A stretch of DNA of 43,215 nucleotides from a virus. Lineage: Duplodnaviria; Caudoviricetes. A program made the position numbers and the translations under genes. This document shows positions 10,725 through 41,258 of the stretch, piece by piece; the first letter of the stretch is position 1, and each line of letters opens with the position of its first letter. The stretch covers positions 1-43,215 of IMG/VR virus record IMGVR_UViG_3300032303_002980. One strand, given 5' to 3'. The notes under the pieces were generated by a model, which saw only the letters and a list, made by a program, of their open reading frames with translations, searched no databases and was not told the origin of the DNA.

Positions 10725-10753
10725 ATTATAGCTCGGAGGCGTACTTGTGTCAA
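10725..10753 (-). promoter_or_regulatory. Perfect sigma70-type promoter upstream of ssb
   Basis: TTGACA (10753-10748), 17 nt spacer, TATAAT (10730-10725); SD AGGAG precedes the ssb start. Confidence 0.9.
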
Positions 10754-12372
10754 GTGGCCGGAAAAAAACATTTATCTACTACTAGGCCGTCTTTTGTTTT
10801 GCTTCTAGTCCCGATAAATACAAGAATATTTCCAGAAAATAAAACTGACTTATATTTGGAATATGTCTCTGGAAAAAATATAACAGAGTCTAGTGAGCCG
10901 AACTGATCCTCTATTGTTACAAATGCCATCTCTAAACCGGGATTTTTACCATTTTTGGTCTTTGTAACATTGATATAAGATATCTCGCCAACAATAATAA
11001 TATTTTGGTTTAATGATGTTTTAAAATTTTTGCAATTACAATTAGCATTACTTATATCATACATATCTAATTTAGAACAGCTTATACTAGTTCCTATAAG
11101 ATCATTTTCAGAATCAGATAACCATTCTATTTTATCTATTAAAGAATATGGTGGATGATTAACTAAAGAAACAAGACCAGATACAGAGTCTTTTCTGGTT
11201 TTAATCAATTTATGATTTAGCAATATATTTTTTAATATCTCAGCTACAGAAGAATCTTGATTTTGATTGCATAATTCTTTAAATGTTTCTGTCTCTTTTT
11301 TAGTTAGTTTACTACAGATATCATATTCAAATAAAAGTTCCGATCTGTTCTTTTTAAAATAATCAAATGCACCAGCACTTATTAAGTTTTTTGCTGCTAT
11401 AGAATTAATATTTAATAATACTAGATTTAGTATCTGAGTCCAACTTAATTTTTGGACATCATCAGGAGATACTAAGCTAAGAATTTTTTTATATACAGAC
11501 TGTCCAACCCCCTTTATGTCAGTTAAGCCGAAATAGATAATTTTATTCTTTAGTATAGATAGCTCATTTAAGTTTCTAAAATCCGGAATTCTTATATCTA
11601 TATCCATTTCTATAGCATTTTTTACCAATTCTTTTATTTCTTGCTGTGGATCTATTTTATCTTTAGCAAATCTTAGATAAGAAGCGAAAAAGACTCTTGG
11701 AAAATGTGCTTTTGCATATGCAGAAAGATATGCATTCATAGCATAGCTTATAGAATGACTAGCATTAAACAAATATCTTTGGCTTTTTTCAATCCATTCG
11801 AAAATTTGCTCTGCTTCTAAGTCAGTAATTAGTCCTGTTTTTTTAGCACCAGAAATAAATTTTTTCTTAACTTTTGCCATTTTGTCTGCTTGTTTTTTTC
11901 CAATAGCTTTTCTTAAGTCATCTGCTTCTTTCAGGTTAAAACCAGCTAATTCTTTAGCTATAGACATAGCCTGTTCTTGATATATCATCTCTGAATAAGT
12001 ATCTTTAAGAATTGGTTCTAGAGCAGAATGAAAATAGTCTATCGATTCAAGTCCATTTTTTTTATCTATATAATGGTTAGATACACTTTTCCCATCTCTC
12101 ATAGCCTCTAGACATCCTGGACGCAATATGCTGACTAGACCAGATAGTTGATGTATATTTTGAGGCTTTAGTTTTCTTGCCATTGTTTGTCCAAGTCTGG
12201 ACTCCAATTGGAAACAACCTTTAGTATTACCCTCTGATATTAAATCCCATGTTTTTTTACATTCCAAATTTATATTGGAAATTTTAGGAGAAAAATCAAT
12301 TTGTGGTATATTATTATGATTGCCAATAATTGGAAATTTACATCCACAATCGAATGCGAAAAATTCTGACAT
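10750..12372 (-). CDS. dnaE: DNA polymerase III alpha, C-terminal half (fingers, HhH, OB fold)
   Basis: GNTKGCFQLES, LRPG, IYQEQ, EADDLRKAIGKK, YLFNASHS.SY, GLTDIKGVG, MAFVTIED..G. Confidence 0.92.
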   Translation of the reverse strand: MSEFFAFDCGCKFPIIGNHNNIPQIDFSPKISNINLECKKTWDLISEGNTKGCFQLESRLGQTMARKLKPQNIHQLSGLVSILRPGCLEAMRDGKSVSNHYIDKKNGLESIDYFHSALEPILKDTYSEMIYQEQAMSIAKELAGFNLKEADDLRKAIGKKQADKMAKVKKKFISGAKKTGLITDLEAEQIFEWIEKSQRYLFNASHSISYAMNAYLSAYAKAHFPRVFFASYLRFAKDKIDPQQEIKELVKNAIEMDIDIRIPDFRNLNELSILKNKIIYFGLTDIKGVGQSVYKKILSLVSPDDVQKLSWTQILNLVLLNINSIAAKNLISAGAFDYFKKNRSELLFEYDICSKLTKKETETFKELCNQNQDSSVAEILKNILLNHKLIKTRKDSVSGLVSLVNHPPYSLIDKIEWLSDSENDLIGTSISCSKLDMYDISNANCNCKNFKTSLNQNIIIVGEISYINVTKTKNGKNPGLEMAFVTIEDQFGSLDSVIFFPETYSKYKSVLFSGNILVFIGTRSKTKDGLVVDKCFFPAT

Positions 12373-12373
12373 A

Positions 12374-13075
12374 TTATGTGTTTACGAATGAACCTTTAAA
12401 TTTAATTTTTTGAGCCATACTGCGATGCAGTTTCAAAAAACGAATCAATATATCTGCTGTGTCCTTTACGTCCTTTAAAGCGTCGTGTGCTCCTTCTTTG
12501 GATATTCCTAAATAATCTCGTAAATTATCAAGAGTATAATTTTTTAATTCATTATTGCCCTCAAACCAATAAAATACGATATTCATCATATCTATAACAT
12601 CTCTAGGATAAAACAAGGATGTTTTACCTTCTTTGTTTAGATTATTATGTTTCTTACTTAGTCTCTCTATAATTCTTAGGTCAAACCTATTGATATTATA
12701 TCCTGCAGCAATAGGTGCTGTAAAGCAAGATTTTTTACCACCATGAGATCTCGTATGGTACATTTCTAAATAAGATACAAATGCTGACCATCCGTGTTCC
12801 TGTTTTTGGTATTCTTTCCATGATTTCAAAACATCGTCTTTTGAAGCACTTTTGACCTTAGCATGAAACTCTAGTACGTCTGAGTCCCCGTATGCATAAT
12901 CAGGCTGAGTGTCCAAAATGTCTGGCCTTAAAGTAATATTAAATTCGGAATCAGGAATAATTTCAAGATGAACAGGATCTATAACTATTGCAGCGATCTG
13001 AACTGGACTGCAAGCATCTGGATTGATGCCATCAGTTTCAAAATCGAAAACACAAATTTTTTGAGTATTAGCCAT
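12374..13075 (-). CDS. dnaQ: DEDDh 3'-5' exonuclease (DnaQ/epsilon-like)
   Basis: VFDFETDG (ExoI), GYNINRFDL (ExoII), HDALKDV (ExoIII). Likely start is ATG 13075, overlapping the upstream stop. Confidence 0.88.
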   Translation of the reverse strand: MANTQKICVFDFETDGINPDACSPVQIAAIVIDPVHLEIIPDSEFNITLRPDILDTQPDYAYGDSDVLEFHAKVKSASKDDVLKSWKEYQKQEHGWSAFVSYLEMYHTRSHGGKKSCFTAPIAAGYNINRFDLRIIERLSKKHNNLNKEGKTSLFYPRDVIDMMNIVFYWFEGNNELKNYTLDNLRDYLGISKEGAHDALKDVKDTADILIRFLKLHRSMAQKIKFKGSFVNT

Positions 13076-13247
13076 TAACATTCACCACAGTGTTTGGTGC
13101 AAGGTATGTTTTTTGCGAAGAGTCGCTAACGGCATAACAATTTACGCTTTTGCAACAACTAATTCTTACATCGTCGGTCTTAACATATTCTATGCCATTG
13201 ACTGTAAAAATAGATCCAACTGCAACTTCTGATAATGGTTTTTCCAT
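13068..13247 (-). CDS. Small 59 aa protein missed by the ORF track (MEKPLSEVAVGSIFTVNGIEYVKTDDVRISCCKSVNCYAVSDSSQKTYLAPNTVVNVNG)
   Basis: Strong SD AAGGAG upstream of ATG 13247. It fills the dnaE-N/exonuclease gap, and its stop overlaps the next start (ATGGCTAA). Confidence 0.8.
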   Translation of the reverse strand: MEKPLSEVAVGSIFTVNGIEYVKTDDVRISCCKSVNCYAVSDSSQKTYLAPNTVVNVNG

Positions 13248-13249
13248 TG

Positions 13250-15134
13250 TTATTCTCCTTTTGCTAAAATATTTGAAACTGTCATAATTTTATCTAACAT
13301 TGCAACACCAAGAATATCAAATTTAATCAATCCAAGATTTTCTAGATCTTGCATTTCCATTCCCGCAATTGATTGGTGATTTTTTGAATCATAAATCATT
13401 GGACACATTTGATCCAATTTTTGACTACTAATAACTACACCGGCAGCGTGTTTGGACTGATTAGATTTTGTACCCTCTAAGCGTATGGCTTGCTCAAAGC
13501 GTTTCGCAAGTGGACCCATGAGAGTACCATCACTAGATATATAGCACCATTCCTTGAGCTTGTCAACGTTGTTTTCTAATGCCCAACGTATAATAGATGC
13601 TTCGCCCGTGTCTTCTTTCATTTCTTGCAGTTCATCTGCTATTTTTGCTTCATCAGGAATAAATTTGGTAATTTTATTCATTTCATCAAATGTAACGTTG
13701 CCATATACTCTTAATACTTCTTTTAAGGCACCTCGACCTTTCATCGTATTAAATGTTATCATTTGAGAAACCTTATCTTTACCGTATTTATTTTTAATAT
13801 ATTCTATAATATTTTCTCTTTTATTGATAGGAACATCAACGTCAATATCTGGCATAGATATATGATCAGTAGTATTTCTACCTTCATTATAAAATCTTTC
13901 AAATAATAGATTATATTTTAAAGGATTTATTTCTGTAATACCAATTAAATACGAGACTAAGCATCCTGCTGCACTTCCTCTTCCTGGTCCTGGAAGCCAC
14001 TCACTCTTCTTGACATAATTTACAATATCTTGCACTATAAGAAAGTAACTAGATAATCCAGCTTTTTGTAAAATATCTAATTCTAATTTTACTCTATCTG
14101 CATATCTTGTGTGCTCAGACTCTGGAATATCATTCATTATCTTTTCTCTCCAACCATCTCTACATAATTGTCTCAGATATTCTTCTGGATTAGAATTATT
14201 TGGACATTCAAAAGCTGGAAGTAATGGCTTACTGAGAATAGAATACTCCTCACATAAAGAATCAACAAAAAATGTATTCTCTAGTTCTTCTTGTGTGTGT
14301 ATACTTTGCATCTCTAACATATCTGGAATATGAAAATTATCAGATCTGAAAAAACACTCCATAGGAATCTGCTCATTAACAAGCATTTTTTTATTAACAT
14401 CTATTAAAGTTGTTTTTAGATTATTGCATAATAATATTCTCTGATCAATTGCGTCCTGTCTTTCACAATAATGAGCATCAGGGGTGGCTATGATTTTTGT
14501 TCCTGTTTTTTGAGACAAATCTCTCATAACTTGTGTCATTTGAAATTGTGATGGATTAATTTGTTGATCTATTAATTGGGCTTCTAGAAAAAAGTTATCT
14601 TTACCAAATATCTCTTTCATATAAGATATATAGGACAAAGATTCTGTAAGATAATCGTCTTTATTAGCCTCTATAATATCTGATAAAAATGATCCTAGAT
14701 GTCCACAAAAACCAATAACGTTACCATCTAAAAACTCTGACAATCTATTAAAGCTAATTCTTGGTTTACGATAAAAGTTATCTGATTTGTTAGACTCTGA
14801 TATTATATTAATTAGAGTTTTCCACCCTAATAAATTTTTAGCTAATAATAAAAAGTGACTTAGTTCGCCATTTGATTTATCTTTTATATTAGAATCCTGT
14901 TTGCATACATAAATTTCACAACCTAATATAGGCTTGATATTTTTTGATTTCATTGCCTGATAAAACTGTACACAACCAGATATTGATCCATGGTCAGTTA
15001 TTGCACAACTTTTAGCACTTATAGAAGAACATCTATTTGCTATCTGATTAGGTTTACTTAGTCCATCCAGTAGAGAATAATGTGATTCTCTAAGAATGGA
15101 CGTGCAAAGGAACATATCCTTTATTCACGTCCAT
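13250..15134 (-). CDS. dnaE: DNA polymerase III alpha, N-terminal half (PHP + palm/thumb), interrupted by a 10-nt gap at 15083-15092
   Basis: SHYSLLDG, AITDHG, GCEIY, DAHY, GPGRGSAAG, LLFERF, MPDIDVD, HAAGVVI, KFDILG. The first 14 codons (MDVNKGYVPLHVHS) lie in a different frame from ATG 15134. Confidence 0.92.
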
Positions 15135-15172
15135 CTATATTTTCTCCTTTTTGTGGGATTTAATCAAAATAC

Positions 15173-16216
15173 TCACATACTTCCCGGAGCTTTGTAATGG
15201 CCAAAAGTATGGTTTGGGTGCTTGTACACTGGCATTATACCATTGATTCCATACAAGTCAAGATCGTGTTTTACTTGTTCACATTTGGTCATGGTCTGAT
15301 CTTTTTTACATAATTGACCATCTCTGTATTCTTCGATAGGATCTACATTCGTTCCTTCAAATGTTGTTTTGCCAAAAAAACATAATTTACTACACATCCA
15401 ACTCTTATGTAGTTTAGGCTTTTTTGTGTGTTTAATATGATTAAATTTTTCTCTTAATATATCTTCTGTAGAAGAAAGATCATAATCATGAAAACATATA
15501 GAAAATGGCCCACCATCATTTATAAAATAAATAGAGAAAATAACATTTTTGATATTTGGATATAGTTGTTTAATGGCATAATGATATATTTTTAATTGAG
15601 GATCTTTTTCAAGTTTTTCCTGGGTTTTTTCTTGTCCGGTAGCCCAGTCTAGTCTTTTGCCAGTTTTCCAATCTATAACCTCTATGGTGTCATCATTTAC
15701 TTTTGTAATAAGATCGATGGTGCCTTTTAAAGCCAAGTGTCCTGAGAGAGTTTTGCCGTCTCCTAGGTCATAGGAATACTGTGACCAAGGCTTGCGAATC
15801 TCAAAGTCAAAGTGCTGCTCTGGTTGAAGTATATCTCTATTTCTTGGATCAAACATTCCATTATTTAAATTAATAGCTTTATAAACCCACTCTTTACAGT
15901 CTTTGTGATCTTTATTTGACCATTTGTGATGCGGAGAGTTCTTGGAGTAAAAAGAATATACCTGATCAATAATTGTGTCTAAATCATAATTTATTACATC
16001 AATATCTCCAAGTATATCATCATTTATCTTAGATAGATTATCTTGCGTCCCCTTTTTAATACAAGCAAGAATCTCCAAAACTTTATGAACTATCGTTCCT
16101 TTGTCTGCCTTTTGACCTGATGGACCTCTCCACCCCAACACATATTCTAGAAAATATTGTTGTTCGCACATACTGTGTGTATTAAATGAGCTGCTTCTAA
16201 AATATGTAATTATCAT
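15173..16216 (-). CDS. PD-(D/E)XK exonuclease, Cas4/RecB/AddB-like
   Basis: RSSS....C..QY, GTIVHKVLE, LKGTIDLI, IEVIDWKTG, QLKIY, plus C-terminal Cys residues (WMCSKLC...C). Confidence 0.85.
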   Translation of the reverse strand: MIITYFRSSSFNTHSMCEQQYFLEYVLGWRGPSGQKADKGTIVHKVLEILACIKKGTQDNLSKINDDILGDIDVINYDLDTIIDQVYSFYSKNSPHHKWSNKDHKDCKEWVYKAINLNNGMFDPRNRDILQPEQHFDFEIRKPWSQYSYDLGDGKTLSGHLALKGTIDLITKVNDDTIEVIDWKTGKRLDWATGQEKTQEKLEKDPQLKIYHYAIKQLYPNIKNVIFSIYFINDGGPFSICFHDYDLSSTEDILREKFNHIKHTKKPKLHKSWMCSKLCFFGKTTFEGTNVDPIEEYRDGQLCKKDQTMTKCEQVKHDLDLYGINGIMPVYKHPNHTFGHYKAPGSM

Positions 16217-24119: not shown

Positions 24120-24714
24120 AATTAATATGAGATATAAATGGTTTCCATATTTCGTACGACGATCCCTGAGTTATATTAGATAGTTCCTGGTACCATGGCA
24201 AGTATGCGTAAGAATAATTCGGCTCGATTGGGATATTTATTAATGACATCCCAGCTTCTTTTGGTGTTCTGTTGCCCTTTTTATGATTACATGGTCTGCA
24301 TGCTGTAACAACATTATTCCAATTTGTAGATAATCTTTTATTCTCATTGAATCTACTTTTTGGAATTATATGATCATATGTTAATTGTGAGAAACATAAT
24401 TGAATACCACAATATTGACATGTATGATTATCTCTAATAAATAAATTATGTCTAGAAAAATTAATCTTTCTATTGTATAGGTTGAAGAATCTAAGTGTTT
24501 TTGCTACTGCCGGAACAGGATATTGTTTGCCGGCAGATCCTTGTATGTGTTTATCTTTGTAATATGATAATATTTCGATACCATAATTTTTACTATCTTC
24601 ATATCTAATAGACCAAACTATAGCCCTCTGCCAAGATATTATTCTCAGAGGGGAATAGTCGGCATTTAATAATAAACATTTACTATTTTCGGCTTTGCTG
24701 CTCATAGTCATCAA
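24112..24714 (-). CDS. HNH endonuclease (McrA-like)
   Basis: LLLNADYSPL..ISW.RA; SRHNLFIRDNHTCQYCG; TYDHIIPKS; NVVTACRPCNHKKG. Confidence 0.92.
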   Translation of the reverse strand: MMTMSSKAENSKCLLLNADYSPLRIISWQRAIVWSIRYEDSKNYGIEILSYYKDKHIQGSAGKQYPVPAVAKTLRFFNLYNRKINFSRHNLFIRDNHTCQYCGIQLCFSQLTYDHIIPKSRFNENKRLSTNWNNVVTACRPCNHKKGNRTPKEAGMSLINIPIEPNYSYAYLPWYQELSNITQGSSYEIWKPFISHINYV

Positions 24715-25414
24715 GTCTATATAGGATTTTAGAGATGATTGGATTTCTTACAATATCTGAGGCTTCTAATTTAGAATAACCTATACCTTCAACTCCATTA
24801 AGGGCTGATATCATATCGCTAAAACCGCCTTGTAAATGTCTGCTTAAATCAGACTGAGCAACGTCGCCAGTTAAAACCATTTTACTAGCTTGTCCTGTTC
24901 TTGTTATTAGCATTTTTAATTGTTCATATGACGCATTCTGGCACTCATCAGCAACAATAAAAGCGTTATGAAAATTACGACCTCTCATAAGTCCCAGTGG
25001 AACCACTTCAACTTTATTATTAAGTCTTAGTGAAGCATAATGTGCTGAGCTTATGAAGTGTACAATTTCATCTAGTATAGGTAATAGATAAGGATGTAAT
25101 TTTTCTTCTGCTGATCCTGGGAGATATCCCATTTTTTCTCCAGCCTCTAATATAGGTCTTGTGATAATAATCTTTTTTACTTTTTCATCTAAAAGATACT
25201 CAAGAGCCATTCCTATAGCGATGTGTGTTTTGCCACTACCGGCTAAGCCTTGACAAAATGTTATAGTATTTTCTGCAACAGTCCTTATGTATTCTTTTTG
25301 ATTTTCTGTTCTTGGTTTTAATCGATTTCTATAAGCGGCTCCTTTGGGTTCCAAACTATTTGTCGCATCAATAACCTTACTTTTTTTCTTTGAGTTTCTA
25401 TTAGTTTTTCTCAA
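24683..25414 (-). CDS. phoH: PhoH-family ATPase
   Basis: PRTENQ, GLAGSGKT, TRP..EAGE..GYLPG, MRGRNF, DECQN, GDVAQSDL, VRNP; TTG start. Confidence 0.95.
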   Translation of the reverse strand: MRKTNRNSKKKSKVIDATNSLEPKGAAYRNRLKPRTENQKEYIRTVAENTITFCQGLAGSGKTHIAIGMALEYLLDEKVKKIIITRPILEAGEKMGYLPGSAEEKLHPYLLPILDEIVHFISSAHYASLRLNNKVEVVPLGLMRGRNFHNAFIVADECQNASYEQLKMLITRTGQASKMVLTGDVAQSDLSRHLQGGFSDMISALNGVEGIGYSKLEASDIVRNPIISKILYRLDDYEQQSRK

Positions 25415-29577: not shown

Positions 29578-31908
29578 TTAACAAATGAAAGAGCCAGCGC
29601 CGCCAACAGCCAATGGATCTCTTACCGATATTGCGGATCCTGTTCCTGGACCTGTCGCAACCCATTGTCCAATAGGTTGTGATAAACACGTTACAGGAAT
29701 TTGAACTGTTCCATAAGTATTTATCGGATTATAGTCACTATAATCGAGTATTTGAGGATCTAATAATAAAGGATTGCCACATGTTACATTAGTCAATTCA
29801 TAATATGCAACAAATGTACCAGTTTCAACTTTGCCCAATTGCCATTTATCAACAGAAAATCTCATTTGTATATCTGAGTTCTTAAGACTAATATATCTAT
29901 TATTATCAGAATCATAAGCATATTGAGATATAAATTCTGTTAATCCTGCTTTAAAAACATATACTCCAACGTTGCTTCCTTCTCCACCTTCTGGAGTAAC
30001 TCTGGCGAATGCTGTTTTATTATCATAGCTAATCATTGGACCAAATAAATCGTCACTATAGCTTTCCCAGGTACCTGTTGGAAGAAACGGATAAATTGGA
30101 TAATTTGTATTATTACTTAATTTATACAAGTCATCACCATTTTTATTCATATACCACTCGCCATCACCCTGTGTAGATATTCTTGGATAACTATTTCCAC
30201 CATCTTTTGAATAAAAAATATTGTCATTATAATCAACAACATTTGCTGCATAATATTTTCCGCTTGTGTCATAGCCTGCTCCTGCTCCTGAAACATAAAC
30301 AGAGTCTCTAAGACTCCAATACACATCAACACCGGGCCATTTAATAGTAACATTGTCACTATTATCTAATGTTACAAAGTTAAAGTTTGAATTTATCCAT
30401 GATCTAAAGCCATCAGGAGTTTTAGCTCCATCGTAATCTACAAAAATTATTTGTCCACTATTAGCTTTATAAACATTACCAGCAGAATTTGTTGTTTTTA
30501 CCATAGGATAAACGTGAGGAATCGAAGCTACTTGATAAGGTAATCCAGAGTAAATAATCTTAAGATCTTGCACTCCTTCTGTTGTAAAATAATTTCCGCT
30601 AGGATGAGCAAAATTATCCCCACACATAAAATCAGCATTAACATACGAGCCAAAACAACTATTACTAATGGTTGAATATCCTGTTGATACAGGAATTAAC
30701 GAATTAAATTCTGAACAGGTTGTTCCAGATGTTCTACAAGAAAAATTAAATTCTATTGATGCATCTAAATACTGTTTAGGACTAAATAATGCTGTTTCGT
30801 TGATAGAATAAGAGACACTATTATAAGTAAATTGATATTTATGAAAGTGTGGTCTTATTCCACTACAACGATTCACCATAGAGACCCCATATTCTGAACT
30901 GTCAAAAGGAACTCCAACTCCTGAAGTTCTATAAGAGAATCCTATAGTTGAAAGGCCAGTATAAACTGGAGTTTTTGATGACGAGCTAGATAAATTATAT
31001 GGATTGTTACTTATTCCACTAATATTAATTGAGGACGGCTGACTAGCTATTCCTGTGAAATAATTGGTATTAAACCAAGGTTTTGCTGGGGCAGTTCCTG
31101 CAACGTCGAGAGGATAATTTTCTGGTAATATATTATGACCAATTTGATCAACAACTGTCCAATCACTATAAGGATGTCTCCACCTTAATGGTGGGTTGAA
31201 ACCAATAACCGCTCTATGGCCAGTTCCTAGTGGTAGTACAGGATTGGTGCCGCCAGGAAGATCTATTCCCACTATATCTTCTGGAGCTTGAATAGCTGTG
31301 AACACAAATTGACACGGAAAAGCATATACTCCACTCAAATTTGATCCAATATTACCGCTTGTTGCATATTCGACATATCCTTTATATGAAGGTTCGTTTG
31401 TTGTTTCTACTAAACTAATTATTTTTTTACCAACACCATAAGACATATTCCAGTAGTCCTGATAGGCAGATACTGAGGTATCGGTCATGCCTGATAAAGT
31501 ATTTAAACGCCATTCTTGAGTTAATGACTTATAATCAAAAACATATGTTCCGCTAAACACTGGATCATTTGGAATTTTAATGCTTATTCTTGAACTAAAA
31601 TTTGTTGTTGGGGGAGTTCCACCAAAAAGAGAGTATGCATACGATGGAGCTGACTTAGGGGTGCTTGTAATAACTCCATTATTTGGTTGTCCTTTAAAAA
31701 TATAATATGGAGCCTTTAAGCTGATTGGATGAGTGAATCTTGAGTCGTTACAAACGGTATTAGGATCTTCCCACGATGATAAAAACTGAATAGGACAGCA
31801 ACTTGCACATAAATCTTGAACCTGTTGTTCGGAGGATCGTACCCACGCGGTACCATTTGAATATCTAACATAAAAATTATTACCTACTTTTCTAACAAAA
31901 GCTGTCAT
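29578..31908 (-). CDS. Large S/G/T/Y-rich hypothetical protein (probably virion-associated)
   Basis: 776 aa, beta-rich composition, N-terminal CASCC; no enzyme motif seen. Confidence 0.55.
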   Translation of the reverse strand: MTAFVRKVGNNFYVRYSNGTAWVRSSEQQVQDLCASCCPIQFLSSWEDPNTVCNDSRFTHPISLKAPYYIFKGQPNNGVITSTPKSAPSYAYSLFGGTPPTTNFSSRISIKIPNDPVFSGTYVFDYKSLTQEWRLNTLSGMTDTSVSAYQDYWNMSYGVGKKIISLVETTNEPSYKGYVEYATSGNIGSNLSGVYAFPCQFVFTAIQAPEDIVGIDLPGGTNPVLPLGTGHRAVIGFNPPLRWRHPYSDWTVVDQIGHNILPENYPLDVAGTAPAKPWFNTNYFTGIASQPSSINISGISNNPYNLSSSSSKTPVYTGLSTIGFSYRTSGVGVPFDSSEYGVSMVNRCSGIRPHFHKYQFTYNSVSYSINETALFSPKQYLDASIEFNFSCRTSGTTCSEFNSLIPVSTGYSTISNSCFGSYVNADFMCGDNFAHPSGNYFTTEGVQDLKIIYSGLPYQVASIPHVYPMVKTTNSAGNVYKANSGQIIFVDYDGAKTPDGFRSWINSNFNFVTLDNSDNVTIKWPGVDVYWSLRDSVYVSGAGAGYDTSGKYYAANVVDYNDNIFYSKDGGNSYPRISTQGDGEWYMNKNGDDLYKLSNNTNYPIYPFLPTGTWESYSDDLFGPMISYDNKTAFARVTPEGGEGSNVGVYVFKAGLTEFISQYAYDSDNNRYISLKNSDIQMRFSVDKWQLGKVETGTFVAYYELTNVTCGNPLLLDPQILDYSDYNPINTYGTVQIPVTCLSQPIGQWVATGPGTGSAISVRDPLAVGGAGSFIC

Positions 31909-31920
31909 TATATAATCCTA

Positions 31921-32844
31921 TTATAAGTATGTGAAACCGTAATTGGGTAATTTTTGTACAGGAAATCCGTTAAAATTGCTGAAGGCATAAGATCCGTTTG
32001 CTGATAACATCCCAGCAGCAACATCTGATGTTATTAAAAATGATCCATCTGGTATGGGGCCCCACTCTGGATGACCTCCGTCATTCCATTTACCCCAACT
32101 ATTTTGTACTAAAAATGCTGGCTCACTACCAGTATCATCACAAGCAATCCAAGCCATGCAATGACCCCAGTTACCACTTACTTTAGCAAAACCCTTTTTG
32201 TCTCTTTTGTTACTAAAGCCATAATTTGAACAAACAGCTAATCCATATCCATTTGCTAATGCGTCTCTAGCTTCTTCTACTGTTGTTACTAAACTAGTTG
32301 TTGTAATTTGATGATCATTAGCTAGATCTATTACAGGATCTGGTAAACCTCTTGATCCCCAGTTCGCTCCTAGATTGCCATTATATTTACTAAAGTCTGC
32401 TATGCCTTCATAATTTTTTCTAACTACTATTCCGCCAGCCTGACTCACAAATGTCGCCGCTCTTGCACAACTCATTCCTTGGCCACCATGACCTCGTGCT
32501 CCATAGATAGCTTCTGTTGCTCCTCTAGCTATCCATGTTTCTTTTTCTTTCTTAATATCTATTTCTACCGCTCTGCTAATATCACAGGCATTTCTTGTTC
32601 CATGGCTTACGCAATCTCCAGTGGTTTGTCTTTCTTCGTATGCTTTTTTATCAAATTTTAATACACTTTTATAAGGAGTGCTTAATTTTCCTTTTCCGCT
32701 ATCCACAATCCTTTTTGCACCATCAGAAAAGTAAGCGTATTTAGAATTTTCCATTAGTTGTTCATATACATGCTCTTCCCATAAACAACCACTAAAACCA
32801 TCTTTATAGTTTTTATATAATTCTTCCGGAGTGTATCTTGGCAT
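31921..32844 (-). CDS. Papain-like (C1) cysteine peptidase
   Basis: Q-TTGDCVSHG (oxyanion Q and catalytic C), WGHCM (His), QNSWG..W...G (Asn). Confidence 0.88.
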   Translation of the reverse strand: MPRYTPEELYKNYKDGFSGCLWEEHVYEQLMENSKYAYFSDGAKRIVDSGKGKLSTPYKSVLKFDKKAYEERQTTGDCVSHGTRNACDISRAVEIDIKKEKETWIARGATEAIYGARGHGGQGMSCARAATFVSQAGGIVVRKNYEGIADFSKYNGNLGANWGSRGLPDPVIDLANDHQITTTSLVTTVEEARDALANGYGLAVCSNYGFSNKRDKKGFAKVSGNWGHCMAWIACDDTGSEPAFLVQNSWGKWNDGGHPEWGPIPDGSFLITSDVAAGMLSANGSYAFSNFNGFPVQKLPNYGFTYL

Positions 32845-36775: not shown

Positions 36776-37429
36776 TTATATAATATTTTCTTTATATAAT
36801 AATTCTAACGCATTCAAAGAATTCACCCTCAAACCAAATAAATTAGCATTTTTGATCAATTTTATATGACTCTCATTCCAAATGTTGCCATTGGAAATAA
36901 TACCAATTTCAGGTACTTTTTTATTGATTAGGGCAGAGGCAGTGATATTATCCGCTATATCGTCTATGAAATATCCAGTTGATGGATATATTATTTTTAT
37001 GTTAAAGTCATGCAATATTTGAACTATTTTATAAAGTAGTTCATAACTAAATTGACGATATTCTAAAATATATCTTATTTCAATATCAGGATGTTGTATA
37101 ATTAAAGATTGTATATTTTTTATATCTTCTTTAAATTTATCATATTTTCTATTACATAGATAATAACTTGGACAAATAACATCAATTGTATTGATATATT
37201 TAATTACATGTTCTATAGAAGATAACTTGGATTTTGAATCAAGAATACCAAATGGATAATCTATAGGAGTAGATAATGCTATATGTTGTGGCAAAAAAGA
37301 TTTTGCAACTTTAACATGAGAAGGCAAAACCGATAATGATTGAATACTATATTTGCTAATTTTTTCTATAATAGAAGATAATTCAGAATCTTTAGTTGCT
37401 ATATCGTAGTGATAGTATTCTATTATCAT
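36776..37429 (-). CDS. DeoC (deoxyribose-phosphate aldolase)-like TIM barrel, catalytically degenerate
   Basis: SVLPSHV, PIDYPFG......K, IDVI, RYILE; YPSTGY in place of KTSTGF. Confidence 0.7.
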   Translation of the reverse strand: MIIEYYHYDIATKDSELSSIIEKISKYSIQSLSVLPSHVKVAKSFLPQHIALSTPIDYPFGILDSKSKLSSIEHVIKYINTIDVICPSYYLCNRKYDKFKEDIKNIQSLIIQHPDIEIRYILEYRQFSYELLYKIVQILHDFNIKIIYPSTGYFIDDIADNITASALINKKVPEIGIISNGNIWNESHIKLIKNANLFGLRVNSLNALELLYKENII

Positions 37430-38091
37430 TTTACATTATTTTTTAGGGCATCTAAATTTGGATACTTTTTATCTCCTAACGCTCCATCTGCAAAACCATA
37501 ATACACCGCTTCTGACGCAGTAAGTATCCAATCTGTTTTATTTGCTAATTGACTTTCTATATGTTTTCTAACAAAAGGTCTTTTCCAATTTTTTTCTTTA
37601 GACATGGGAGAAGATATCCATTTCTCAACAAATATATCGATCATTTTTAATGATTCTCTTTCGCTCCACTGCAAACTACTAATAGCGGCTTTATGTTCAT
37701 CATCAATAGTTATAGACCCATAATGGATCAACATATTAACATTTGGCATAAGTATGCGGGTGTTAGCTGCTTGAAAAATTATACTACTAGCAGATTGAAC
37801 TTTTGCATATGCCAATATTGTTGTTTTACATTTACAATGTTTTATTGTGTCATAAATACTTAAGCAGTCTTCCCAGTCTCCTCCGGGTAGGTGCATATGA
37901 ATAAGTATAGGCTCTCCAGACAATAAACACAGATATCTTAGATTTTTTTCAAAAGTAATAGCAGACCTATAATCAACACCACTATCTTCATCATCCGCAA
38001 TGTATGAATGCAAATAAATTTCTCTATTTTTAATATCCAAACCATAAGAATGAATAGCATTAATTTCTTCAGTAATTGTTGCTCTAGGCAT
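37426..38091 (-). CDS. clpP: ClpP-family peptidase
   Basis: REIYL, HLPGGD, IYDTI, QSASS (Ser), MLIHYG (His), DWILTASEAVYYGFAD. Confidence 0.85.
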   Translation of the reverse strand: MPRATITEEINAIHSYGLDIKNREIYLHSYIADDEDSGVDYRSAITFEKNLRYLCLLSGEPILIHMHLPGGDWEDCLSIYDTIKHCKCKTTILAYAKVQSASSIIFQAANTRILMPNVNMLIHYGSITIDDEHKAAISSLQWSERESLKMIDIFVEKWISSPMSKEKNWKRPFVRKHIESQLANKTDWILTASEAVYYGFADGALGDKKYPNLDALKNNVK

Positions 38092-40694: not shown

Positions 40695-41258
40695 TTATAC
40701 CTGTAATGTTAAGAAGTTATCTATGCCCATTTCTTCGATTAATTTTAGAAAACCTTCATAAAGCTCAATACCATCTTCACTTCCTTGTAATAGTTCAATA
40801 AACATATTGGCGGTAATTTCATCTCCAACCGATCTAGCAGCAACTATCGTCGCTCTTTCTGCTGCTGATGCTTCTCTTACGGAGTCCAGATTGTATTGTA
40901 TCATTGCGGCCATATCATGACGTTTCCAAACCGGTGGACTCAATACTAATGGCTGATAATCGGCATCAAAAAATTCTAATCTCTTAATGTTGATTGCGGC
41001 ATGGGTCTGTTCTTGAATAGCATCTTCCTTAATAATTGCTGCTAATTTTTTATATCCCCACCTTTGAAGATGTTCAGCTTGAGCTGTTAATACTGTTGTT
41101 TGTTGCCAGTGTATGTTTAATGATTTTTTTATTAATTCAATTACGGTATCAGAAGTATACCCAGTAACTTCTTGTGCTTGTGTTGGTGTTGGTGTTTCTG
41201 ATATTGGCGCTTGATACTGTTGATTTAGTAAGTCATTGATTGATTTTTTATCAGTCAT
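40695..41258 (-). CDS. Bacterioferritin-like protein with a degenerate ferroxidase centre
   Basis: H..RWGYKKLA, EQTHA...KRLEFF, GDEITA.MF.ELL, MGIDNFL are Bfr-like patterns. Confidence 0.75.
   Translation of the reverse strand: MTDKKSINDLLNQQYQAPISETPTPTQAQEVTGYTSDTVIELIKKSLNIHWQQTTVLTAQAEHLQRWGYKKLAAIIKEDAIQEQTHAAINIKRLEFFDADYQPLVLSPPVWKRHDMAAMIQYNLDSVREASAAERATIVAARSVGDEITANMFIELLQGSEDGIELYEGFLKLIEEMGIDNFLTLQV

Follow-up and report, generated by a model that had tools for sequence, protein, structure and literature searches.

A stop-led ten-base gap in the dnaE gene of a Caudoviricetes virus and its variants in relatives: a probable small programmed bypass in a homing nuclease cassette

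Organization of the dnaE locus

The window analysed in this study is the whole 43,215-nucleotide stretch of IMG/VR virus record IMGVR_UViG_3300032303_002980 (Duplodnaviria; Caudoviricetes). DnaE is encoded on its minus strand (10750-15134) in two genes, with a 59-aa ORF and a DEDD exonuclease gene between the halves and no intein seen (Table 1). The N-terminal half is itself interrupted close to its 5′ end. An AGGAG sequence is followed by a 9-nt spacer and by ATG 15134, which opens an ORF of 14 codons (ORF1), MDVNKGYVPLHVHS. The last codon of ORF1, TCT, is directly followed by the stop TAG. The ten nucleotides TAGAGAATCA begin with this stop and end with the triplet TCA, and 610 open codons (ORF2) start at CAT 15082 (CAT TAT TCT CTA CTG GAT GGA) and run to the stop at 13250. 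This layout, with 624 aa for the joined product, had been given in a preliminary description of the window and was confirmed on the sequence.

The stop of the upstream PD-(D/E)XK nuclease gene usually overlaps the dnaE ATG (ATGA) in relatives that have no gap (gapless relatives). These relatives carry sigma-70-like sites similar to that of the window, matching at 10 of 12 positions, at the same place. Sites with at least 11 of 12 matches were found in 20 of 66 versus 6 of 53 rows, a weak enrichment among related rows. Elsewhere on the minus strand of the window, a 776-aa ORF (29578-31908) is flanked by sigma-70-like sites at 31935 and 34232, and the genes at 40695-41258, 37426-38091, and 24683-25414 were taken by eye to be ferritin-like, ClpP-like, and PhoH-like, respectively.

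Table 1 Features of the dnaE region in the window
Feature	Coordinates	Strand	Remarks
sigma-70-like promoter, TTGACT-16-TATAAT with TG before the -10	15234..15261	-	inside upstream nuclease gene; consensus match only, 11/12
PD-(D/E)XK nuclease gene, upstream	15173..16216	-	ends 38 nt before dnaE ATG
Shine-Dalgarno (SD) sequence AGGAG (15148-15144) and spacer	15135..15150	-	resembles last codons of HNH-type gene of relatives
ORF1, 14 codons, HxH metal motif of PHP domain	15093..15134	-	
Predicted 5′ hairpin, -20.1 kcal/mol	15096..15134	-	start codon pairs with His codon before take-off
Putative take-off codon TCT (Ser)	15093..15095	-	
Coding gap, 10 nt, from TAG stop (15092-15090) to putative landing triplet TCA (15085-15083)	15083..15092	-	
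Predicted 3′ hairpin, 8 bp	15071..15092	-	from stop codon; partner is the His-Tyr-Ser-Leu codons
Alternative extended stem, 15101-15094 with 15068-15061	15061..15101	-	exclusive with base of 5′ hairpin
ORF2, 610 codons, N-terminal DnaE half (rest of PHP, palm, thumb)	13250..15082	-	
59-aa ORF (Cys-containing), DEDD exonuclease (12374-13081), C-terminal DnaE half (10750-12372)	10750..13247	-	

Presence of the ten bases and the DnaE product

Confirmation of the ten bases from reads had been proposed as a check against assembly error. They were present, with no indel at the site, in contigs from four of four sequencing runs (one study; contigs, not raw reads; one run, X1, may be the source of the window itself). 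Three of the four contigs differ from the window elsewhere, by 1, 9, and 27 differences. The identical ten nucleotides are also found in relatives L001 (87% amino acid identity) and L049 (68%). The ten bases are thus a real, conserved, stop-led gap. Further gap variants were seen in contigs of X3, a sample that also contains a close relative of the window.

The 610-aa product of ORF2 matches the Pfam PHP family from profile position 7, as well as DNA_pol3_alpha, and is 82% identical to residues 13-622 of the gapless relative L002 in a gap-free alignment. Joining ORF1 to ORF2 restores the conserved N-terminal part of DnaE. The PHP ligands of Mycobacterium tuberculosis DnaE1 are described in the available text of PMC5636811 as five His, three Asp/Glu, and one Cys, and ORF1 apparently supplies two of what look like nine ligands in the window. 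The preliminary description considered the other ligands intact. By our own reading of an alignment with a gapless relative that has this motif in common with the window, eight of the nine look identical; where Taq and M. tuberculosis DnaE carry the Cys ligand, there is a His.

Both flanks of the gap are under coding selection. Among 62 distinct 5′ ends, six different codons encode the Leu of the YxPLHxH motif, and most of the variation at His, Tyr, and Pro is synonymous. Downstream of the gap, omega was ~0.07 for the window and L001 and 0.02-0.10 in six other pairs, with synonymous sites near saturation; the pair L045-L062 was dropped, its ungapped comparison being out of register.

Gapped relatives

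Among the best 80 loci from 153 relatives, a gap was present at the site in 14 and absent from 66. Pattern scans extended this set. Scan 1, in which a TCN take-off and a His resume codon were demanded and a stop was not, gave 100 loci, 57 of them gapped dnaE, all with a stop first in the gap (57/57). A metagenome scan gave 95 loci and a scan with a TCY take-off and any resume codon gave 74. Four dnaE genes were found among 22 matches to a TCR take-off and one among 27 matches to a non-T take-off. A scan that started from the hairpin returned at least 31 dnaE genes among the 119 matches listed, and 31 of 31 were gapped. Pooling gave 323 loci that include the 5′ end of dnaE, in many cases with one contig represented twice: 233 gapped and 90 gapless, with 95 distinct gapped contexts and 44 distinct variants of take-off plus gap.

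The gaps of the 44 variants are 7 (2 variants), 8 (2), 9 (8), 10 (12), 11 (13), 12 (4), 14, 15, and 17 nt long, and all three frames are represented (13, 14, and 17 variants with lengths of 0, 1, and 2 modulo 3). The first triplet is a stop in every variant (TAA 21, TAG 18, TGA 5). TGG, which the scan patterns allowed, heads none of the 44. The scans were bound to patterns, so that unusual variants are under-sampled, and the variants are related, so that the counts are not independent events. ORF1 is 11-16 codons long in relatives. The preliminary description had called for a conserved Ser-stop...Ser gap with variable fill in related phages and had named uniqueness to this genome, together with no reporter output, as evidence for a null mutation; such gaps occur in many relatives.

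Reassignment of the stop codon was rejected, as all three stops head gaps and 31 of the 44 gaps shift the frame. It is also countered by the long minus-strand ORFs of the window, which end with TAA (32), TGA (15), and TAG (7).

No close relative was found among cultured phages (best match 34.6%). A search of a genome collection returned two matches, one due to chance and one, L462, carrying the cassette. The contig of the latter is 8 kb long and belongs to a bin with the title Chitinophagia; it may be a binned phage contig and is a weak hint at the host at most.

Take-off and landing codons

Ser codons at both ends of the hop, UCU before the stop and UCA at the end of the gap, had been part of the original proposal. 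The match is present in the window, and the landing triplet shares bases 1 and 2 with the take-off codon in 34 of the 44 variants. It does not extend to the other ten, which mismatch at base 1 or 2: nine share the centre base only, and one differs at the centre. The last triplet of the gap is a Ser, Thr, or Ala codon in 43/44. A TCG take-off is paired with a TCG landing in L100, and ACT with ACT in L278 (HVHT), a joint Ser-to-Thr change at both positions. The nine base-1 mismatched landings are ACT, GCT, and GCC, all ending in a pyrimidine, so a tRNA with a GGA anticodon would keep two of three pairs. Base 1 of the landing triplet is stem-paired in 11/11 rows with a base-1 mismatch and also in 30/42 matched rows. 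AGY landing triplets were found in 0/43 variants versus an AGY Ser codon at this position in 18/56 gapless genes, and no gap (0/44) contains an earlier triplet matching the take-off. Take-off from the His codon was rejected, as the triplet preceding the landing triplet is variable. No tRNA genes were found in the window, and the identity of the tRNA that reads UCU and UCA would depend on the host.

The resume codon is CAT or CAC in 42 of 50 combinations and ATG in seven; in-frame GTG lies within 9/43 gaps and TTG within one. The loci resuming at ATG include L312, L376, L389, L401, L422, and L441, several of which keep the nuclease gene, and there a hop and re-initiation could compete. In L581/L592, take-off TCA is followed by the 7-nt gap TGAGTGA and resume codon GAA. 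The landing triplet TGA is mismatched at the centre, and neither a frameshift path nor a start codon is available, which makes these loci the best test of landing set by structure.

Predicted RNA structures

The region folds at z of -4.3 to -6.0 versus shuffles. The 5′ hairpin is predicted in 54/54 gapped genes, with a median of -17.3 kcal/mol and, for gapped 5′ ends, a median z of -5.3 versus synonymous shuffles. Gapless 5′ ends (n = 55) have a median of -2.5 kcal/mol, and only L079 has a decayed 5′ hairpin (-10.9 kcal/mol). In an alignment of 23 rows, which are related and three of which are shortened by the chosen coordinates, 98.9% of the cells are paired and three of the nine pairs have changed on both sides. 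L079 is sister to the gapped L067 and L118; gapless L079/L080 keep their own SD and the decayed hairpin, and a precise loss of the gap is probable there.

The 3′ hairpin has the first or second base of the stop as its start and covaries with the downstream codons, its own partner scoring above swapped partners in 43/45 cases. The wobble base of the Ser codon is paired as T-A in 27, A-T in 5, C-G in 5, and G-T in 4. No good 3′ hairpin was found in L100 and L237. In the alternative stem, GUCCAUUC pairs with the Leu-Asp-Gly codons; this fold is predicted to be 1.3 kcal/mol more stable in the window (-28.6 vs -27.3 kcal/mol). GGATGG is kept in 52/54 gapped versus 24/55 gapless genes. The bypass reading of the preliminary description is extended by these two stem-loops, at the stop and 5′ of it, both predicted and covarying, and by a link to a homing-type nuclease; neither was part of that description.

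Association with a nuclease gene and distribution

An SD of its own, by a loose rule, precedes dnaE in 48/51 gapped versus 26/51 gapless genes, the gapless ones being mostly ATGA-coupled to the upstream nuclease. The dnaE start is overlapped by the end of an ORF in L093, L094, L128, L152, L238, and L278. Five of these six ORFs, when scanned, matched PHROG endonuclease, endonuclease VII, and HNH families, and Pfam gave no significant nuclease match for them. The last codons of the nuclease gene provide the SD and the ATG. By a loose motif, and with some flanks short, an HNH-type gene lies upstream in 14/70 gapped contexts. When the nuclease itself was searched for, the ten closest of 80 loci were directly before dnaE, nine gapped and one gapless (L313), and more distant relatives adjoined other genes. 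As L313 (= L277) is gapless, the gap is not always needed beside the nuclease; its dnaE has no hairpin-type start.

Upstream of the nuclease gene, L308 and L152 still carry the stranded former gene start (MKNYIPLHAHSH and MKNYIPLHVHAH, then a stop), and the replacement peptide of L308 is that of ORF1 in the window. The L308 gene (2969-5113) resumes with His-Asp-Ser codons rather than His-Tyr-Ser and is broken further down by an apparent split intein. The HNH-type gene is absent from the window, where the SD and spacer are likely a relic of its tail.

Relatives thus show a nuclease at the site, patchy spread, and empty alleles in close kin, as in a homing cassette. Gapped genes are scattered over a FastTree tree of 100 rows (18 changes); a second tree of 34 chosen rows required 9 changes, not lower than shuffles, and a single clade of gapped genes was rejected on those chosen rows (p-AU 2e-133). 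Repeated homing and repeated loss are not separable on these trees, which have no root. The dnaE genes of the window and L001 are placed within gapless ones. The first 42 nt of the window gene match those of the distant L073 at 40 positions and of L308 at 39, but those of the close L002 at only 24. Transfer of the cassette into the lineage of the window is favoured by these comparisons, and the ten-base gap is likely the remnant of a homing nuclease cassette.

Proposed mechanism and alternative explanations

Comparison of the sequences points to programmed bypassing within a homing cassette, similar to that of T4 gene 60/MobA but much smaller, with a probability of roughly 0.85. Translation would begin at AUG 15134 and proceed through 14 codons, until peptidyl-tRNA-Ser is on UCU and the A site holds UAG; the stop-led hairpin would then hinder the release factor. 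The emerging strand would close into the 5′ hairpin, which extends at its base to the codon adjoining take-off, and would thereby promote sliding in the forward direction. Once the tRNA had re-paired at UCA, CAU would be decoded next, and the product would be an N-terminal DnaE subunit of 624 aa in which the HxHSHYSLLD motif is intact. The hop from UCU to UCA had been proposed in the preliminary description and is supported by the comparative evidence. Its suggested role in regulating polymerase output gained no support, and the nuclease link can account for the gap with no need for regulation. In the proposed origin, insertion of an HNH-type gene immediately after HxH[S/A]H would have supplied a new SD, a start, and a replacement N-terminus; the gap would disrupt the target site of the nuclease, the gene of which would later have been lost in the window.

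A stop with a hairpin is a common stimulator of recoding, and both are present here. Recoding at the stop would mean a +1 frameshift in the window, where no stop interrupts the resumed frame within the gap, -1 frameshifts in the 8-, 11-, 14-, and 17-nt gaps, and readthrough in the 9-, 12-, and 15-nt gaps, a few residues being added in the PHP motif. It is nevertheless very unlikely, as three mechanisms would be needed among close relatives, 3/31 frame-shifting variants have a stop in the resumed frame that closes this route, two to five variable residues would enter a motif whose spacing is the same in the DnaE proteins of Taq, E. coli, and M. tuberculosis, and the landing triplet is left unexplained. 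By bypassing, all gap lengths and frames are explained with one P-site tRNA that leaves at the stop and re-pairs downstream. Termination followed by re-initiation, with ORF1 as a leader or separate peptide and DnaE starting at ATG 15115 or at or after the gap, was judged just as improbable as recoding. ATG 15115 is in frame, one group resumes at ATG, some gaps hold an in-frame GTG or TTG, and DnaE is already split further down in this family. Re-initiation would, however, be limited to genes that offer an ATG or GTG; the resume codons are mostly CAT or CAC, from the gap onward no start precedes CTG in the window, and ATG 15115 lies inside the 5′ hairpin with no SD and is missing in L045 and L062; conservation of both flanks as amino acids also argues against re-initiation.

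Removal of the gap from the RNA, by a micro-intron or hairpin-guided cutting and joining, would suit the strong conserved structure and the Ser, Thr, or Ala codon at the end of the gap, residues that are seen at this position and would be decodable after excision. It was considered less probable still. To our knowledge, no bacterial system or machinery excises 7-17 nt from RNA; the cut sites would lie on a single strand of a stem instead of in a bulge-helix-bulge; an Rfam search gave two weak matches only, both far below threshold; and the in-frame stop in 44/44 and the lack of AGY landings point to the ribosome. A dead gene or an assembly artefact is extremely improbable. Contigs, not raw reads, were compared, and, as the genome is larger than the 43 kb of the window, a second dnaE copy may lie elsewhere. 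Against this stand the 233 gapped loci in 95 distinct contexts, the purifying selection downstream, and the agreement of contigs from four runs.

A more specific model of the bypass is tentative, and its chances were put at somewhat below even. A bypass device of ~75 nt would consist of RNA only: the start-codon hairpin would drive the ribosome forward, the stop-led hairpin would block termination, and structure, not codon match, would set the landing. Hops of 7-17 nt could then occur in any frame, including in-frame stop-hops, with no nascent-peptide signal, and the two exclusive folds might gate initiation and limit polymerase output.

Comparison with known systems

Very few natural systems of programmed bypassing are known. 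The dnaE genes would add a large family to these, in which a far smaller bypass device is present in a replicative polymerase gene in 44 natural variants. The variants are a ready mutational series for the drive by exiting-mRNA pairing, the need for a nascent peptide, and the need for a codon match. A homing nuclease could live inside a conserved motif by a route besides introns and inteins, and gene callers would truncate DnaE in many aquatic phages. No paper on bypassing in dnaE was found among those listed from the literature outside subscription journals and bioRxiv supplements; the metagenomic tables of 10.1101/2022.08.31.505936 could bear on novelty.

The following comparisons refer to the available text of the cited sources. 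As in T4 gene 60/MobA (10.1101/2022.08.31.505936; 10.1101/2024.12.09.627546), the stop is right after the take-off codon and a stem-loop is at the stop, the landing codon is matched or wobble-matched with no premature landing triplet, the linked nuclease gene is often lost and the bypass kept, and the insertion is at a metal-binding motif of a replication enzyme. In gene 60, a hairpin in the A site blocks the release factor (PMC7282821), pairing of the exiting mRNA is proposed as the forward driver, and 26 nt separate the stem and the P site (10.1101/2024.12.09.627546); the proposed geometry in the window would differ from this. The host gene is dnaE instead of a topoisomerase gene, and the gap is 7-17 nt instead of ~50 nt. 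With 11-16 codons before take-off, there is no room for a KKYK-type peptide signal 25-30 residues upstream, and a mini-SD positioned 6 nt ahead of the landing triplet would not fit into the shortest dnaE gaps. Ser or Thr is used here versus Gly or Asp in gene 60, all three frames occur, and the 5′ hairpin is conserved in all gapped dnaE genes tested versus unconserved in the gene 60 paper. As to MobA homology of the dnaE-linked nuclease, its PHROG matches are the endonuclease, endonuclease VII, and HNH families. The dnaE gap would work like gene 60/MobA but is not a member of it.

The terminase inserts of Streptomyces phage Hau3 (PMC10732093) are likewise 7-10 nt long and located in an essential phage gene, with structure around the site, and bypassing there has mass spectrometry support in E. 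coli. The trigger in Hau3 is a rare UUA codon and the role is proposed to be regulatory, whereas in dnaE the gap always begins with a stop and is linked to a nuclease. Short gaps and two-out-of-three landing pairing are shared with the byps of Magnusiomyces mitochondria and with synthetic stop-hops, shown for 9 nt in constructs (PMC5009743); the byps, unlike the dnaE gaps, use an unassigned codon and seem independent of context. No natural in-frame stop-hop was known to that 2016 review, as far as its available text goes, and 13 of the 44 dnaE variants would, from their sequences, be such stop-hops. Genes fractured by free-standing homing endonucleases (PMC2677866) are also phage replication genes, dnaE included, broken by a nuclease gene. 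Their repair is by a split intein, whereas here the break is accompanied by a replacement 5′ end and a gap.
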